64,000 bases of DNA from a virus. Where the stretch lies: positions 7,300 through 71,299 of the IMG/VR virus record IMGVR_UViG_3300032296_003403; one strand, given 5' to 3'. The first letter of the stretch is position 1. Each line of letters begins with the position of its first letter. Under the pieces are notes generated by a model. That model had not been told where the DNA came from, ran no database searches, and was given only the letters and a program-made list of their open reading frames with translations. Position numbers and translations under genes: made by a program. This document shows positions 5,943 to 63,069 of this stretch, piece after piece.

Positions 5943-8474
5943 TTATATGCTACTTTTTAAATCTTCATCACTAATACTCATAAACGCTTTTCTAAGTTCA
6001 GGGGATGCTTTTGAAGCATCTTTTCCGTATTCTTGAGATATTAGCTTTTCTATGTTCTTCTTAAGGGTGGGAGACTTTTGTATCTCTATATCTTTTTTGT
6101 TATAGCCAACAGCTAAATCTTCTATATTCTTGTATTTATTCTCTACGTCTCTCTTTGCTTGGTTATATAAAGAATCATATTTAGCATCTTCAGCTACTCT
6201 ACCACCTCTTGCAGTAAGAGAATTTGGATCGTATGGTTGATGTAATTGAGATCCTAAAGGAGTATCAGCCATGTCGTTTAAGTCATCAGGGCGAGCTATT
6301 TCTTGACCTTTAGGAGCGTATGAATTGAATATAGCAACTCCTTCATCTCCCAACTCATGAACAAGTTTACTTACAATAGCATGTTTTTCTGATCCATTAG
6401 CCCTTACGTATGGGTCTTCACTGTTTTGAAATCCCCATTCATACTTTTTCATATACTCCTCAAGACGCTTTTTTTTTACGTCTGGGCCTTGATATCCCCA
6501 ATACTGGCTTACTTCTGCTTCTTTGATTGCTTGTTGAACACGCTTACGAATATAGGCTTCTAACTTAGATTCTGCTACTGGGGCTGGGAATACTTTATCC
6601 AATAATTCTTTTAAAGGACTTTGTATATCATTTATTTTATGAACATTTCCTAGTTTATCATTAGGATCTGGGTTATAAATTCCTGTTACATTTCCTGATT
6701 TAGTGCTTGTAAACATTGCCTGAGATCCATTATCTAATGTAAGCACTAATTCTTTCTTGTCTTTATTAAAAGAAGCATTTTTTACTACTCCTTTAACTTC
6801 TGCTACGGAATCTGAATCGTTAGGATCTGATTCTATTTTAAAAGATACTGCTTTAGATACAGTTTCTTTCTTGTCTTTATCAGACAACTCTTCGTTTACT
6901 TTTACTCCTAAAGCAGGTAAAGCTGATTTTTGTACTGCTTTAAATTTATCTCCTAAAGAAGCAGCTTTTTCTTTTGTTTCTTTCCAATCATTACTACCAT
7001 GAACCATTTCTTTACTATCTGTATCTATTATATAGTACTTATAAGAAAGTTGAGATGGTTTTACGTCTACCATTTTAATGCCCATATTAACAGGCACTTT
7101 ATAAGATCTAGCGCCTTGTCCAGATACACTAGTACTAAAAGTTTTATACTTGATTCCGTCATCTTTCTTTTCTGGTTCTTTAGATGATGGATCGTACATT
7201 ATAGGATCTCCTTCTGGGGTTCTTCTTCCTATCAAAGTAAGTTTTCTTTCTTTTCCAGGAGGTACTAATATTTTTATAAATCCTTTTATGGATTGCATAC
7301 CTCTTCTAGGATCATCTACTGTTTTTTCAAATGGAATGTCTTGATTATAGACAAATTTGTCTGTTTTTATTAGATTCTTCAATCCTTTTCCAGACATTGC
7401 CCCATCTTTACTTTTTCCGTCTCCGTATTTTACAGATACTTTATAAGTTTCTTCGTCTTTTATTTGAGTATCTTCTCTCAAATAACTTTCTTTAATAGAT
7501 TCCATGTTATCGTAAGATGTTTGAATAATTTTATATAATCCAGGTTTTTTTTCTAATTTTTTTGCGACACTATAATCTATAACTGCTTTTCTTTCTAATT
7601 CATCTTTATTCATGTCAAATAATGACATCATGAATCTTTTTAATAAATCAGATAAAGTATCTTTAGCTTGTTTCTTTTCTTTTTCAGGAGTTGATGGAGT
7701 AGCTGTTATATCGTAGTTTTTGATGATTTGAGTAAACATCCTTTCTACTTTGTCGTCTAACATAAAAACAGCTGCTTGCTGTTTAGCTTTCTTTAAATTT
7801 TCAGGCTCTTCTTCTGGTGTATCTTTTTCCGGCTCAAATTCGTCGTCCGCTAAAAATCCTAAATCAATATCTATAGGATCTTCTTTTGCTTTAGTAGAAA
7901 CTACTTGTTTAGGAACTCTATACTTTTTCTTCTTTTCATCACTAAGAAAAGAACTTAAAGTAAATAAATCCAAAGGTCTTTTATCTAATCCATTTGCTAT
8001 ATCAGAAATAGGAACTAAAGAAAGTTTTATTTTATCTTTTTGTTCAGATGTTAGGCTTTTTACAACATCATCTGTCAAATATATAAAGTATGTATACTGT
8101 GCTCCTTTCCTAGCCCCGTAGAAAACTTTAGGAATAGTTATATAGTATACGTCTCTATAATGTTCGTTTTCTGAGGAGGGCTGTATTAGTGTGGAAACTT
8201 TAGGACTGAGTTTTACTTTTAAAGTATTATACTCTTCCTCTGTTATTTTTCTATATATAGAGTATGCTTTCTGAGTTACTCCCTTAGTTGTATTATTAAA
8301 TACTATCTCATGTACGGAACCATCTTTAAAAGATGATTTTAGAGCTTCTGGATTTACTTCTGGTCTAGGTCTTTTTTTACTAGACGGGGGTTCCATCTCA
8401 TCCCTAGTCCTTCTAGCCCTTTTTGGTTGCTCCTCTTCTTTAAAAAAATCATATATCTCTTTATGTAGAGCCAT
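5943..8474 (-). CDS. Large hypothetical head-region protein (possible protease-processed polyprotein)
   Basis: 843 aa, Lys/Glu-rich, with segments separated by LRE/VNE/IKE/VAE sites. Confidence 0.6.
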   Translation of the reverse strand: MALHKEIYDFFKEEEQPKRARRTRDEMEPPSSKKRPRPEVNPEALKSSFKDGSVHEIVFNNTTKGVTQKAYSIYRKITEEEYNTLKVKLSPKVSTLIQPSSENEHYRDVYYITIPKVFYGARKGAQYTYFIYLTDDVVKSLTSEQKDKIKLSLVPISDIANGLDKRPLDLFTLSSFLSDEKKKKYRVPKQVVSTKAKEDPIDIDLGFLADDEFEPEKDTPEEEPENLKKAKQQAAVFMLDDKVERMFTQIIKNYDITATPSTPEKEKKQAKDTLSDLLKRFMMSLFDMNKDELERKAVIDYSVAKKLEKKPGLYKIIQTSYDNMESIKESYLREDTQIKDEETYKVSVKYGDGKSKDGAMSGKGLKNLIKTDKFVYNQDIPFEKTVDDPRRGMQSIKGFIKILVPPGKERKLTLIGRRTPEGDPIMYDPSSKEPEKKDDGIKYKTFSTSVSGQGARSYKVPVNMGIKMVDVKPSQLSYKYYIIDTDSKEMVHGSNDWKETKEKAASLGDKFKAVQKSALPALGVKVNEELSDKDKKETVSKAVSFKIESDPNDSDSVAEVKGVVKNASFNKDKKELVLTLDNGSQAMFTSTKSGNVTGIYNPDPNDKLGNVHKINDIQSPLKELLDKVFPAPVAESKLEAYIRKRVQQAIKEAEVSQYWGYQGPDVKKKRLEEYMKKYEWGFQNSEDPYVRANGSEKHAIVSKLVHELGDEGVAIFNSYAPKGQEIARPDDLNDMADTPLGSQLHQPYDPNSLTARGGRVAEDAKYDSLYNQAKRDVENKYKNIEDLAVGYNKKDIEIQKSPTLKKNIEKLISQEYGKDASKASPELRKAFMSISDEDLKSSI

Positions 8475-58509: not shown

Positions 58510-58908
58510 TTATTTGTATTTATCTGTAACGTTTTTTATAGCTATTTTAATTGTAGTCTTTCCTGCTCTTTTAGCAAGTTCTACTCTATGATGTCCATCA
58601 AGTAAATATATTTTACCTTGATATTCTATAGCCACAGGAAATTTAGTATCATATTCATTTTTAGGAGTGTCCTTCTCTATATAATCTCCATATTTTTTTA
58701 ATTTATCTTCACTAGGAGTTTCTGTATAGATTATATCTGATATTTTGACATCTTTTATGCTTTTTGAAAAAAAACTAGGCTCCCATGGATCTGATGGGTC
58801 TTTTTTAAAATAGTTCCAATTACCAATTCGTTGTAAAATTTGTTGTTCTTCTTGTGCTATCCATTGAGGAGATTGAGCTTCTTTTAATAATATATCAATA
58901 AGCTTCAT
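58510..58908 (-). CDS. ParB/Srx N-terminal-domain protein
   Basis: PVAIEYQGKIYLLDGHHRVELAKRAG..TI; likely start MKLIDILLKE at 58908; no HTH. Confidence 0.8.
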   Translation of the reverse strand: MKLIDILLKEAQSPQWIAQEEQQILQRIGNWNYFKKDPSDPWEPSFFSKSIKDVKISDIIYTETPSEDKLKKYGDYIEKDTPKNEYDTKFPVAIEYQGKIYLLDGHHRVELAKRAGKTTIKIAIKNVTDKYK

Positions 58909-58984: not shown

Positions 58985-59129
58985 GGGGGGGGGGAGGCTT
59001 CCGAGTTTGGACGTGTTTTACTTCCGAGTTTGGCTATTGTGCACATTTAAGGAAAATCATTGTGCATGTTTAAGGGTTGTGGATGAGGCAACTTAGGGGG
59101 TGACTTGAGGGGTTACTTAGGGGGGGGGG
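58985..59129. repeat. G-rich tract with short direct repeats at the strand switch
   Basis: G10 at 58985 and 59120; CTTCCGAGTTTGG x2; ATTGTGCAYRTTTAAGG x2; ACTT(A/GA)GGGG x3. Confidence 0.75.
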
Positions 59130-59209
59130 TGTATATATTTTTTATATATTAGAGTTTATGGATTTTTGGAGGTCGATAGGAAGACGCACCTGCCGGATCC
59201 CCCCAGACG

Positions 59210-59382
59210 TTAACATTTCCTTAACTACTAATATTCGTATCTTTGTATGGTAAGGGGGAAGGGATCGCACCCCACCCCTTAACAGGTCTTTAACATTTGA
59301 TATTTGTATCTTTGTTGGGTAGTCAGGCAGTTCTGACGGAAGGTCTTAACAAGCCTTTAACAAATGATATTCGTATCTTTGT
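59210..59382 (+). promoter_or_regulatory. Three tandem early promoters: TTAACA-N5-TTAAC(A/T)-N11-TATCTTTG
   Basis: Copies at 59210, 59279 and 59346 with identical internal spacing; TATCTTTG is the Bacteroidota -7 element. Confidence 0.8.
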
Positions 59383-59420
59383 GGGGTCGGGAAGTTAAAT
59401 CTGAACGGCTCTTGTATATG

Positions 59421-59437
59421 GTTCTTTGACATATTGG
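59421..59437 (+). promoter_or_regulatory. boxA-like antitermination element GTTCTTTGACATATTGG
   Basis: Resembles rrn boxA (TGCTCTTTAACA; variant GTTCTTTGACAT); lies between the promoters and the first gene. Confidence 0.55.
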
Positions 59438-59483
59438 GTGAGTGTTGGGGTTGCAATCTAATCACAAAAATCAATTTTGTAAA

Positions 59484-60011
59484 ATGAAAGCAACACTAAA
59501 CATCAGAAACGCAGGTGAGATCACTATCAACCCATACGACTTTGAAGTAGAGGGTAAAGATCTCGCCCAGTCAGTAGGTAAGGCATTGTACGAAGCACAC
59601 ATGAAATTGAGTGGTAACAAGCAATGGGACGCTCCCGTTGTGTCCATCAATGGAGTGGAGCTGACCAATGCACAAGTTCAGGCAGTCCGTGCTTCCTTCA
59701 TCAACTTCCAATTGAAATTTGGTTTGGTAAGGGAAAACGTACTCGCACAACTTGCCTTCACGTCTGAAGAAGCGGGAGTATCTTACATCCGTCACACAGA
59801 CAGGAATGGCATCTTCGAGAAGCAAAAATCCTTCACTGCACAGCAGATTGCTGCACAGGCAAAGGAGCAGCTTCGTCTGACAAGGTTCGTCACTTCCCTT
59901 GTAGTAGAGGACGCGAAAGCATCCGTATATCCTCCAGAAGTGGCAAAGGCAATGGAACTCAAGGCAGAGGCTGCAAAGCAGAAACGTATCGCTGCCAAGG
60001 CTTCCAAGTAA
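59484..60011 (+). CDS. First early protein, hypothetical
   Basis: ATG at 59484 after an A-rich leader; codon usage of a highly expressed gene. Confidence 0.75.
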   Translation: MKATLNIRNAGEITINPYDFEVEGKDLAQSVGKALYEAHMKLSGNKQWDAPVVSINGVELTNAQVQAVRASFINFQLKFGLVRENVLAQLAFTSEEAGVSYIRHTDRNGIFEKQKSFTAQQIAAQAKEQLRLTRFVTSLVVEDAKASVYPPEVAKAMELKAEAAKQKRIAAKASK

Positions 60012-60043
60012 ACCCGTAACCCCGCACTCCCCATTATGTCATC

Positions 60044-60945
60044 TCCCTTCACTGGCGAAGCGGTTCGATTCCGCAAAGGGAACTCTGTGGACAGCTTGCA
60101 CTTTAAATAGTGTAGGCACACCAAACACCTACTCGAATGCGTAGTAGGTCTATGCCTGGGTAGGATGCAGGCAGGTAGTAAGCCGTAGCCCTCACGTGGG
60201 AGGGACGCAATCAAACAATCTCATCCGACATATGTCTTATGCGAGGCGTCTGATGTATCTGTGTGGAGCTGCGTGATTAGATTCATGTAGCCCTGTGAAA
60301 GGTCAGGTAGGTAAAGCCAGCCACGTGTGATTAACTGTAGGTGTACGCACTTACATAGTCGGGAAACCTAACCGCTAAGGAACGGAGGGTGGAACGCACA
60401 CGGTCGAGGTGAGGTGAGGGACTTGACTAAGTAGACCGCATGGATGGACTCTGAAAGGTACGGGAGTCTATCAGTTGATGTGATGAGTGTATGTGATTAA
60501 ATTCATGCACACAAGTCTATCCCGAAGCATAAGTCCGTCAATCCCTGGGCTAGGTGGCTCCTAGACTCGTGAAACAAGTCCTGTAACTTTCACACGCTTT
60601 TAAGGACTAAGGGGGTAAAGCGTAAAAACATCCCGTCACTGCTTGCATACGTGGATCGTGTTAAGCGGGTCCGTAAAGTGTACAGCAATGTACATCCTCC
60701 GCTGATATGTCGCACAATAATAATAGAGGCTATATAAAGGAAAAAATACTACCGAGAGAAATGTCTGTTCTCGGTTATACTTGTCTTGATGTGAATGAAA
60801 AGGCAGTTGACATTCCTTTACGAATATTTCTGAGAGATCAGATGGGAATTCAAAAACTGACTGGTATTGGTACTCCCTTGCAGAAATGTAAGAGGATCGC
60901 CCTTGTGGTACACTTCGGTGTAGGATCGACGCCCGACGGTCAGCA
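60044..60945 (+). ncRNA. Candidate large structured non-coding RNA
   Basis: Raised GC, no credible ORF, many stems capped by GCAA/GAGA/GAAA/UUCG/UACG loops, long-range helix 60226-33/60705-12; boundaries approximate. Confidence 0.7.
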
Positions 60946-61029
60946 ATTTATGGAGATTCGTGGGTTTTCCTGCGTGTTTCCCAAATTTTGAGTTTAGTTG
61001 AGATTTTTATCTCAATTGAAATATATATT

Positions 61030-61045
61030 TGTTCCACGTGAAACA
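61030..61045. promoter_or_regulatory. parS centromere-like site TGTTCCACGTGAAACA
   Basis: Exact match to the bacterial chromosomal parS consensus TGTTNCACGTGAAACA, in non-coding DNA. Confidence 0.8.
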
Positions 61046-61229
61046 TTTTTAGAGAGAAACGGAAAACGCAGGTGCGTCTCTCTCCCCCCACAAGCGTCGG
61101 GGTTTCATTTCCCACTCATTACCCCCTTCCATTCATTTGGTTGGGGGTTTTGTCTTATAGTGGTAGTTTGTGGGACTTTGTGGTAAATTATGTCAATGCT
61201 ATTTCTTTACAAATAAAATAACATACAAA

Positions 61230-61676
61230 GTGAAACACTCCAACACTCTTATCCCATCTATCGGTACAGACTTTCAAGAAGTATTTGAGTACGTTACTTC
61301 GGTTGCTACTCCTATCTGTCTCTACACCTATGAGACTTGTAATGCTAATTATAACGATGATGGTCTCTATGTAGAGAGTCGTGATACTGGTACTGATGGG
61401 TATAGGATGATGGATAAGGAGGTTACTTCTCTCTATGGTCATAATAAGATGGATAATAAGATTACTCTGAAATATGAGATTTATAAGTGGGATGATGATG
61501 ATAATGAGTATACTGTTCCTGTCTATATTACTTATTGGGATGGTCGTATTAGTATTAGTAGTACGGTTTTCTTTTTTAGGGAGGTTACTGGGTATAACTC
61601 TTATAGAGTCGTCCACTTTGTATATGAGGATGGGGAAGGTGCTAAATGGTATAGAGATCAATCAATCGGAGAATAA
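61230..61676 (+). CDS. Early hypothetical protein
   Basis: Likely GTG start at 61230 after an A-rich leader. Confidence 0.55.
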   Translation: MKHSNTLIPSIGTDFQEVFEYVTSVATPICLYTYETCNANYNDDGLYVESRDTGTDGYRMMDKEVTSLYGHNKMDNKITLKYEIYKWDDDDNEYTVPVYITYWDGRISISSTVFFFREVTGYNSYRVVHFVYEDGEGAKWYRDQSIGE

Positions 61677-61704
61677 TCAATCACAATAAAAACAAAAGGT
61701 TATG
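61662..61704 (+). repeat. Inter-gene repeat copy 1 (TCAATCGGAGAATAATCAATCAC...AAAGGTTATG)
   Basis: 22/23 identical to 61984-62006. Confidence 0.75.
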
Positions 61705-61998
61705 TCAAACACTCCTAAAGTTGTTGGTAGAATAGATCTTTCTACTCATGAGATTACCTATGCTGATCTATCTCATTTGAATAGTATTGGTATTAGGAAG
61801 GTCTTTAATCATGGTATTAATGATCTTGGTCTTACTGATAGAACTATTATCTGTAATGATTATACGGTTTGGGATTATTGTGAAGAGGATGGCTTATACG
61901 AGAAGCGTAGGGAGAAGCATGTTTCTCCTTGGGATGAAGATGTTTCTTACTATGGTAGGTATGGTACAGAGGACTTTGAATGGTCAATCGGGGAATAA
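61702..61998 (+). CDS. Early hypothetical protein
   Basis: PKVVGRIDL N-terminus; shared leader motif. Confidence 0.6.
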   Translation: MSNTPKVVGRIDLSTHEITYADLSHLNSIGIRKVFNHGINDLGLTDRTIICNDYTVWDYCEEDGLYEKRREKHVSPWDEDVSYYGRYGTEDFEWSIGE

Positions 61999-62025
61999 TC
62001 AATCACCATTTAAATAAAGGTTATG
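61984..62025 (+). repeat. Inter-gene repeat copy 2
   Basis: TCAATCGGGGAATAATCAATCAC...AAAGGTTATG. Confidence 0.75.
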
Positions 62026-62388
62026 GATCACAAATTAGATGTTATTGAGTATGTTGAACGCTTTATCGCTAAACAAAACTCTCTTTACTCTCAAAGTTAT
62101 AAGCTGTATGATCCTCCTGTTTGGGAGTATCTTGTTAAGTCAGAGGTGAAAGCTTATTTACCAAAAGATACTACTCCTGAAATGATTTTTATCTACTTTA
62201 CTGTTTGTAATGGTATTGAGGGTGAGATGTACAAGAGATATTATCAATTGGTAACGGGATGTTTTGGAATTGAGATATATTATCAGGATGAGAATGTTAT
62301 TCCTATTAACCACAATTTTCCACTCTCGGATGTAAAGTTTAAGTTTACCAATTGGTGTAAACATATGCTTAAAAAGTTAGGTAATTAA
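62023..62388 (+). CDS. Early hypothetical protein
   Basis: 121-aa ORF with leader motif. Confidence 0.6.
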   Translation: MDHKLDVIEYVERFIAKQNSLYSQSYKLYDPPVWEYLVKSEVKAYLPKDTTPEMIFIYFTVCNGIEGEMYKRYYQLVTGCFGIEIYYQDENVIPINHNFPLSDVKFKFTNWCKHMLKKLGN

Positions 62389-62424
62389 TTATTCATCTAT
62401 CAATCACAATAAAAAATCAAGATC

Positions 62425-62775
62425 ATGAAAGTTGTTATCAATGATTGTTATGGAGGCTTTGGTCTATCAGACAAGGCAGATAGTATTATGGATGAAAGAT
62501 CTCCTTTCTATAAGGAACACGGATGGCTTTTTATAGATAGAAGCGATCCTATCCTTGTATCAGTAGTTGAGGAGTTGGGTAGAGAAGCAGATGGGTTTGC
62601 TTCCGAGTTAAGGATAGTAGATATTCCAGATGGTTTGGAGTATATGATTCAGGAGTACGATGGTATGGAAAATCTACTTACATATGTGTCGGTGAGTATG
62701 GAGGAGTTAAAGAGTGGGTTGAGTGAAGAGAAGTTATCTCTGTTGCAGTACACAAGGAACATCAAAATCAAATAA
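62425..62775 (+). CDS. Conserved phage hypothetical protein (KVVIN.CYGGFGLS family)
   Basis: MKVVINDCYGGFGLS, RSDPILV.VVEELG and IQEYDGME. Confidence 0.75.
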   Translation: MKVVINDCYGGFGLSDKADSIMDERSPFYKEHGWLFIDRSDPILVSVVEELGREADGFASELRIVDIPDGLEYMIQEYDGMENLLTYVSVSMEELKSGLSEEKLSLLQYTRNIKIK

Positions 62776-62796
62776 TCACCCAGTAAAATTAAGTTT

Positions 62797-63069
62797 ATGA
62801 GTAAGTTTACAGCAGTAAGTACTGAATACAACAATGGGTTCACCATGACATTCTCAAATGGTTGGACTATCAGTGTTCAGTTTGGCAAAGCTAACTATTG
62901 TAATAGAGATAAGGAGGAAAACTTTGCATATACCGCAGAGATAGCTGCGTGGGATAAGGATGGTAAGTGGTATGAGTTTGAACATGATATTGTGAAAGGA
63001 TATTGTGATGCAGATGAGGTAGTTGATTGGATAGTTGAGATATCTTGTTTACAGAATTGTATTTCCTAA
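62797..63069 (+). CDS. Conserved phage hypothetical protein
   Basis: GFTMTFSNGWTISVQFG..NYC and AEIAAW. Confidence 0.7.
   Translation: MSKFTAVSTEYNNGFTMTFSNGWTISVQFGKANYCNRDKEENFAYTAEIAAWDKDGKWYEFEHDIVKGYCDADEVVDWIVEISCLQNCIS

Follow-up and report, generated by a model that had tools for sequence, protein, structure and literature searches.

A parS site of host type with no partner ParB in the available DNA of an uncultured myovirus suggests use of the host's DNA-segregation protein

Does a phage with the structural genes of a virulent myovirus carry, in a single 16-base site, a handle for the DNA-segregation system of its host? The question is raised by a stretch of 64,000 nucleotides of viral DNA (the window), which comprises bases 7300-71299 of the 71,299-base IMG/VR record IMGVR_UViG_3300032296_003403 (G000). 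A first reading of its letters (the original prediction) had picked out a perfect copy of the bacterial parS site and proposed that the phage recruits the ParB protein of its host. Judged by its sequence and setting, TGTTCCACGTGAAACA is a genuine, more-than-chance parS of host type, without a partner ParB in the phage DNA in hand, and it suggests that the phage borrows the host's ParB through this site. The elements at the site are as follows:

61030-61045, plus strand: chromosomal-type parS, TGTTCCACGTGAAACA, a near-palindrome with the half-sites TGTTCCAC and TGTTTCAC, both of which are found in Flavobacteriales centromeres.
61029-61047: island of 19 identical nucleotides, TTGTTCCACGTGAAACATT, shared with the related contig G001, i.e. 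parS with 1-2 nucleotides on each side.
60969-60981 (left arm, CCTGCGTGTTTCC) and 61061-61072 (right arm, GGAAAACGCAGG): imperfect inverted repeat flanking parS, with a 1-nucleotide bulge.

The plus-strand 16-mer agrees with the parS consensus TGTTNCACGTGAAACA at 15 of 15 fixed positions, as had been claimed, and its minus-strand reading shows 1 mismatch. It is the sole match in the 71,299-base record when up to 2 mismatches are allowed. From the base composition of the window, 1.4e-4 matches are expected on both strands, which bears out the statement that such a match is unlikely by chance in 64 kb, with the caveat that over a scan of ~250,000 windows tens of chance matches are still to be expected. 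Because so many windows were scanned, the significance of the site rests on its conservation and context, not on this value alone. The location in non-coding DNA holds as well (the frames crossing 61030-61045 code for only 55 and 62 amino acids, and the homologous 1.6 kb of G001 contains no open reading frame of at least 60 amino acids), and so does the presence of the imperfect inverted repeat. The left arm of this repeat falls in a segment of ~85 nucleotides that is absent from G001; the repeat is therefore no conserved feature and is not counted as part of the element. A perfect 12-nucleotide inverted repeat (59182-59193 / 61068-61079), also considered as an element, is not kept in G001 and is read as a chance occurrence.

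Relatives of the phage were collected by a portal-protein scan of IMG/VR (best 80 of at least 599 matches), in which four are close, with 88-90% identity, and the others reach 63% at most. G001 (90 kb, estimated 51% complete, portal 90% identical) is the only close relative that covers the parS region; G002 stops ~2 kb before it and G003 does not reach it. Conservation in relatives, the lack of which the original prediction had named as a refutation, is found in this contig, which carries the identical 16-mer (16/16) at the syntenic place. Apart from the site, G000 and G001 differ more in this region than anywhere else. The open reading frames neighbouring parS are 26-43% identical between the two, those at the position of 59484-60011 have no sequence relationship, and none of the rightward small open reading frames 3' of parS is matched in G001. 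Aligned globally, the 1.23-kb non-coding stretch is 67% identical and has only four identity runs of at least 16 nucleotides, one of them the 19-nucleotide island at parS; 44 of its 1216 16-mers (3.6%) are fully conserved. At parS, the identity ends at the edges of the site, give or take the 1-2 flanking nucleotides. Exact searches with two conserved flanking blocks matched G001 alone among viral contigs, while single-protein scans of viral contigs with the open reading frame 59484-60011 and with a nearby ParB/Srx-like one (described below) gave no match. Contigs from three other sequencing runs (X2, X4 and X7) span the place of parS with 1-4 differences per piece. Contigs of 72-86 kb are present in other runs, and one of 88 kb appears in a protein cluster.

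The record is estimated to be 42% complete, which corresponds to a myovirus of roughly 165 kb. The portal, large terminase, major head and baseplate-wedge genes lie on the minus strand from 1 to ~58 kb, and past ~58 kb the coding switches to small open reading frames on the plus strand. The nearest cultured relative is Flavobacterium phage vB_FspM_immuto (immuto; 160 kb, portal identity 56%), and a blastn search of 59000-63000 against 50,697 cultured phage records returned no match. A host in the Bacteroidota, as guessed originally, is indicated by four lines: the cultured relative infects Flavobacterium; a leader resembling a Shine-Dalgarno sequence precedes only 7 of 71 open reading frames, the other leaders being A-rich; the TAtcTTTG boxes of three tandem early repeats fit TAnnTTTG, the -7 promoter box of Bacteroidota; and contigs close to the window are present in freshwater metagenomes of several studies. 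The host is thus probably a freshwater bacterium of the Flavobacteriales type. No RNA run was found among the listed sequencing runs with related contigs.

The parS sites of this putative host lineage were examined in Bacteroidota genomes located through a 16S probe motif, with the Flavobacteriales sampled evenly (n = 121). A clear parS is present in four of five Bacteroidota genomes, namely the four Flavobacteriales, typically as two sites ~1.9 kb apart; in the fifth, a metagenome-assembled genome of the Bacteroidaceae, there is a single match with 1 mismatch. Exact TGTTYCACGTGRAACA occurs in 60 of the 121 Flavobacteriales genomes versus none of the 121 for the reversed control, mostly with 1-3 parS per genome, and the exact variant of the phage is common among them. 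In the two genomes that were opened, the chromosomal parS flanks mnmG/gidA, in the interval bounded by ybeY and a methyltransferase gene; in one Flavobacterium, about a dozen copies are found at the mnmG/gidA location. A single canonical ParB (TIGR00180) is encoded in 5 of 5 Flavobacteriales genomes checked, and in the three with single-contig coordinates parB is more than 0.8 Mb away from parS. (The Flavobacteriales genomes behind these centromere observations are G061, G062, G063, G064 and G111, with loci L348-L350.) In a study of a mouse gut consortium, consensus-like parS and ParABS homologues are described for all 12 genomes, including Bacteroides caecimuris (PMC10197239). The phage 16-mer is the same sequence as the centromere of its putative host lineage. 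Outside the 16-mer, the phage and host flanks show no similarity, and an exact search with the adjacent conserved 24-nucleotide block of the phage found it in none of 185,579 prokaryote genomes; for these two reasons, the phage parS does not look like a recent piece of host DNA.

A protein of the phage that could read the site was not found. The window had been said to contain no complete ParAB system, and the record indeed has no match to ParB_N (PF02195) or to ParA-type PF13614; the former was also searched without a match in G001, G004, G005 and immuto, and the latter in G001-G003. In G000 and G001, which cover mostly the same structural half of the genome and jointly about 96 kb, no parA or parB adjoins parS within 3-6 kb on one side and 60-84 kb on the other, and the neighbouring open reading frames match no ParA or ParB family. 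The parS is an orphan in the 71-90 kb of phage DNA in hand. Proteins with a ParB fold are described as frequent in phages, mostly within fusions (PMC12704722). One candidate with such a fold lies near the site:

58510-58908, minus strand: small protein of the ParB/Srx fold, 132 amino acids in its called form, with a LLDGHHRVELAKRAG motif, 2.1 kb from parS.

Its structural model (pLDDT, the predicted local distance difference test, of 82) has its best Foldseek matches among sulfiredoxin, Noc and ParB N-domains (E 2e-4 to 3e-3), and KorB structures are among the matches. There is no helix-turn-helix, the Pfam ParBc_2 match is below cut-off, and the G001 open reading frame at this position is without the DGHHR domain, though G001 retains parS. 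As a reader of parS the protein was rejected on these grounds, i.e. the missing helix-turn-helix, the weak family match and the absence from G001. A metagenome scan with an alignment of the family found 14 loci, none with parS (up to 3 mismatches), of which the best (L212) is not syntenic. In its own right, this is a family of small proteins (~132 amino acids) with an invariant LLDGHHRVELAKRAG and an N-terminal helical extension, whose metagenome homologues are 58-75% identical; two homologues have C-terminal extensions (266 and 298 amino acids).

Perfect parS sites are not confined to this virus. An exact scan of IMG/VR found them in at least 119 stretches, versus 20 for the reversed control (complete scan), an excess of at least 6-fold. 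In the 158 sites of the 119 listed loci (L002-L120), T occupies the free position 115 times, C 38 times, G 3 times and A twice, a spread of natural parS variants and no random mix. Among these listed matches, 2-5 sites occur together in 24 of the 119 loci, and 96 of the 158 sites are not fully inside an open reading frame of at least 100 amino acids, although 81% of the bases are. When the first 100 of the 119 records were tested for ParB_N, 96 were without it and four had a match (two above the Pfam cut-off and two below). Among the records at least 90% complete, 24 of 26 were without ParB_N and two had it, and the records without it include complete genomes of 55-169 kb. The survey has to be read with the caveat that some records may be non-viral elements and that those of low completeness say little. 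In five other large viral contigs, the genes around parS showed no common theme besides AAA_5 ATPases, which adjoin the site in two large records (L030 and L076). Several parS-bearing records of 15-19 kb, likewise without ParB_N, have inverted terminal repeats and are suspected to be phi29-like or tectivirus-like. L009 (IMGVR_UViG_3300002301_000483), a distant relative (terminase 29%, portal 36% identical), has a C-variant parS at 6641-6656, where the 3' end of the terminase gene lies; a ParB_N match is present in this record.

The setting of parS in the window is given by the following features, from left to right:

59036-59152: block of direct repeats and G-runs with an AT-rich palindrome, where the coding strand switches and cumulative GC skew is lowest.
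59201-59388, plus strand: three tandem repeats of 67-69 nucleotides, each containing a TAtcTTTG box and a pair of TTAAC(A) boxes.
59484-60011, plus strand: first rightward open reading frame, 175 amino acids, no family assigned.
60045-60082, plus strand: tRNA-like minihelix, an acceptor-like stem with the T-arm GCGG-TTCGATT-CCGC.
60012-60950, plus strand: non-coding region of ~0.9 kb with conserved islands and compensatory changes.
60918-60944, plus strand: block of 27 nucleotides, GTGTAGGATCGACGCCCGACGGTCAGC, identical in G001, where it adjoins parS.
61024-61031, plus strand: TATATTTG, which fits TAnnTTTG and overlaps the first two bases of parS; in G001 TATAATTG, with one mismatch.
61058-61071: conserved 14-nucleotide block AACGGAAAACGCAG, 12 nucleotides 3' of parS, holding the right arm of the inverted repeat.
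61058-61228: further conserved block between parS and the small rightward open reading frames.
61230-61676, plus strand: first open reading frame of the rightward cluster of small ones 3' of parS, with a presumed GTG start at 61230 and no G001 homologue.

The order is thus a repeat and AT-rich block, tandem repeats, the 175-residue open reading frame, the minihelix, ~0.9 kb of structured sequence, parS, a conserved block and small open reading frames. The first block, conserved 83-94% in G001 and 1.9 kb from parS, resembles a replication origin, although the skew and the direction of transcription change together there and DnaA boxes are at chance level, with no excess. The tandem repeats probably form a stack of early promoters in which a regulator site recurs, and an array of GTTTAACA boxes in G001 (L210, about 7930-8110) has a similar architecture. 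A search of the ESM Atlas with the open reading frame 59484-60011 gave no usable match.

The region 60012-60950 is probably a large structured RNA absent from Rfam, transcribed rightwards towards parS. Within 60575-60830, 11 of 41 predicted base pairs are maintained by two-sided changes between G000 and G001 (for example, the hairpin ACCGAGA...TCTCGGT versus ATCGGGA...TCCCGAT), and folding gives z -1.8 for the plus strand and +0.25 for the minus strand. Rfam has no family at gathering score here, and there are four chance-level matches at E up to 10. The 27-nucleotide block is probably the 3' part of this RNA region; in exact searches it was found only in G001 among viral contigs and in none of the 185,579 prokaryote genomes. 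A 94-residue open reading frame inside the region (60707-60991) is probably no gene.

In the minihelix, the linker ACTGGCGAA connects an 'acceptor' stem of 5-7 bp with the T-arm. Its 21-nucleotide core is identical in G001 and in six otherwise unrelated IMG/VR contigs (loci L211 and L352-L357 in all), and its outer stem covaries throughout (CCCTT/AAGGG, CCCGGT/ACCGGG, GGGAG/CTCCC, CCCCG/CGGGG, GGGG/CCCC, CTCCG/CGGAG). ARAGORN calls no tRNA there and Rfam has no match. In phages, the element may mimic a tRNA or act as a signal for RNA processing.

The TATATTTG box may act as a promoter by its fit to TAnnTTTG. A -33 TTTG at the usual spacing from it is absent, the full -33/-7 Bacteroidota pattern has nine matches versus 4.4 expected, none of them at parS, and a scan for sigma-70 promoters and terminators gave no more than chance-level matches. 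The plus-strand open reading frames starting at 59484, 61702, 62023, 62425, 62797 and 63395 share a leader motif, (A/C)AATCAC, 15-25 nucleotides 5' of the ATG. Many minus-strand structural open reading frames are instead preceded by (A)TATTTATA, reminiscent of a T4-type late promoter. The original prediction had placed parS in the early region of the phage. This is plausible from its position between promoter-like repeats and small plus-strand open reading frames, near the strand switch and the skew minimum, and the assignment itself stays a deduction from this layout. The site appears to lie in a conserved regulatory module that is probably transcribed and may be close to the origin.

What would such a site do? 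In the reading that we favour, with a probability of roughly 40%, it serves the partition or positioning of unpackaged phage genomes by the host system. The 16-mer would be a cis-acting parS that copies the centromere of a Flavobacteriales-type host, and clamps of host ParB with cytidine triphosphate (CTP) would load there; it would be the host's own ParB, because the phage DNA in hand encodes none with a parS-reading helix-turn-helix. The loaded clamps would then slide across the flanking early and origin-like region, and unpackaged phage genomes would be treated as a host origin region and positioned by host ParA. In parallel to phi29, both daughter cells could thereby inherit a phage genome when infection is delayed or non-productive, i.e. 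in a carrier or pseudolysogenic state. The binding of ParB, its spreading and the role in partition are all deduced.

Several observations weigh against partition by the host. A parS with at most 1 mismatch was found in none of eight distant relatives (G004, G005, G056-G060 and immuto), of which G005 and immuto are complete genomes; immuto has one match with 2 mismatches, taken as chance. Among the genomes compared, the site is kept within a narrow clade and is not family-wide, and its absence from 8/8 distant relatives implies a recent, clade-restricted acquisition that is not essential to this phage type. The close relative informative for conservation is a single one (n = 1, G001), and ~55% of the phage genome is outside the available contigs. 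The phage has one site, versus five in phi29 and usually two or more in host centromeres. Its T4-like portal, terminase and baseplate suggest a virulent life style, and the phage is uncultured, with no known carrier state. Moreover, parS is probably part of an early unit under strong transcription, by which ParB clamps could be swept from the DNA. The use of host ParB, as originally proposed, stands in part: the orphan site of host type, found in 60/121 Flavobacteriales genomes with ParB in 5/5, agrees with it, and the distant relatives without a site do not.

The same sequence evidence would be expected if host ParB were loaded for manipulation of the host or for regulation of the phage instead of for partition, which we consider unlikely but still a serious competitor. 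As a decoy, hundreds of phage copies would outnumber the host's sites and pull ParB off the centromere, so that segregation, division or ParA-linked control is disturbed. A replicating phage would easily reach such an excess, because the chromosome has only 1-3 parS, and the virulent-type gene set suits a role in lytic growth. Alternatively, sliding ParB clamps could repress or insulate the flanking early promoters, like KorB and P1 ParB. Here parS has putative early promoters on one side and the early cluster of open reading frames on the other, and it overlaps a TAnnTTTG-like box, but this box is imperfect in G001. A further version, in which parS recruits the SMC condensin to phage DNA, meets the difficulty that Bacteroides is said in a heading of PMC10197239 to rely on still unidentified SMC complexes, which makes ParB-SMC loading in the phylum uncertain. 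Nothing observed distinguishes these versions from partition. With a smaller probability again, and on the whole improbably, the partition system could be the phage's own, with parA and parB in the ~55% of the genome outside both contigs, as in phage-plasmids such as P1, N15 and the extrachromosomal mycobacteriophage prophages; the present phage would then be a phage-plasmid as well. The incompleteness of G000 and G001 and their shared structural half leave room for this, and two of 100 parS-bearing viral records have ParB_N above the Pfam cut-off, with two more below. Known systems, however, keep parS beside parAB, which is not the case here over the distances given above; the complete relatives G005 and immuto are without ParB_N, as are 24 of the 26 near-complete parS-bearing viral genomes. 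Furthermore, the ParBs of plasmids and phages usually read a distinct parS and so avoid incompatibility with the chromosome, whereas the phage site is identical to the host type.

Two readings dispense with ParB altogether. That the palindrome is the operator of another DNA-binding protein, or a promoter or RNA element, with its parS identity coincidental, has little probability in our view. The overlap with the TAnnTTTG-like box, the several conserved non-coding islands around, the adjoining structured RNA and the clustering of CACGTG hexamers (four in the window, three of them within 60193-61040) would fit such an element, and by the reversed control about 20 chance matches are present in IMG/VR. 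It would, however, need a coincidental 15/15 match to an unrelated consensus that is also the centromere of the putative host lineage; the other two CACGTG sites of 60193-61040 have no parS-like flanks, and conservation stops at the edges of parS. Least probable of all, and in our opinion very improbable, is that the site arose by chance or is a functionless, neutral fragment of host DNA. The very many windows scanned, the 20 stretches found by the reversed control and the absence from all eight distant relatives speak for it. It is opposed by the perfect site in G001 amid DNA that is 67% identical with 3.6% of its 16-mers conserved, by the non-coding position, and by the free base C, which together with T makes up 153 of the 158 viral sites among the matches listed. 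Host DNA as a source is opposed by flanks unlike those of host parS and by the adjacent conserved block that is absent from the 185,579 prokaryote genomes.

If partition by host ParB is the role, 'virulent' phages would gain persistence without lysogeny in dividing, non-sporulating cells. The persistence of lytic phages without lysogeny, through a carrier state or pseudolysogeny, is an unsolved problem, above all in Bacteroidota with their abundant phages, and a host-type centromere on a phage offers a concrete and testable mechanism. The survey suggests that orphan parS of host type is common in viral genomes of many sizes. In that case, phi29 would exemplify a general strategy, and the type of parS could be used as a sequence clue for host prediction. 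The broadest form of the claim, that borrowing of the host centromere is a widespread and largely unrecognised phage strategy, with the first Bacteroidota case here, a clade of large freshwater myoviruses of Flavobacterium type whose unpackaged genomes would be positioned and inherited by host ParABS through one centromere copy, is a tentative one and must be called doubtful at present. The IMG/VR counts given above, for the excess over the reversed control and for the records without ParB_N, fit it.

Among known systems, the ParAB-parS of P1, SopAB of N15 and the parABS of extrachromosomal mycobacteriophages are self-encoded partition systems of phage-plasmids. They share with the present case a centromere on the phage genome for episomal inheritance (here proposed), and differ in that they have their own ParA and ParB beside a private parS, whereas here none is found in 71-90 kb and the site is the host consensus. 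KorB of RK2 and BisD of ICEclc are regulators that work as CTP clamps of the ParB fold; from the 16-bp palindrome at which they load, they slide to distant promoters, a possible mode here given the promoter-rich setting, but they are encoded by the mobile element, while the clamp here would be that of the host. The chromosomal ParABS of Flavobacteriales shares with the phage the identical 16-bp site, including the C/T half-site variants, and in both cases the site is intergenic with AT-rich flanks. The phage site differs in being single, on a virus and beside putative phage promoters and a structured RNA, without the ybeY, mnmG and methyltransferase flanks.

The closest parallel is phi29, which has five parS sites and whose genome is placed in the prespore with the help of host Spo0J (ParB), as summarised from Meijer et al. 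2005 in PMC2731898. A literature search for host-type parS in phages beyond phi29, including those of Bacteroidota, or for a general survey found none, with subscription literature largely outside its coverage. Common to phi29 and the present phage are a parS of host type on a phage without its own ParB and a host segregation protein acting on the phage genome (here only presumed), and both phages are classed as, or built like, lytic ones. On the other hand, phi29, a protein-primed podovirus of 19 kb, infects a spore-forming Firmicute and has five sites that serve to trap the genome in the spore, whereas the present phage is a myovirus of ~165 kb with a non-sporulating host of Bacteroidota type and a single site in a conserved, non-coding, early or origin-like region. 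The kind of system is thus known from phi29; what differs is the phage type, the phylum of the host, its lack of sporulation and the presence of one site only, and because phage, host, site number and setting are different, the pay-off of carrying a host-type parS must differ from that of phi29.

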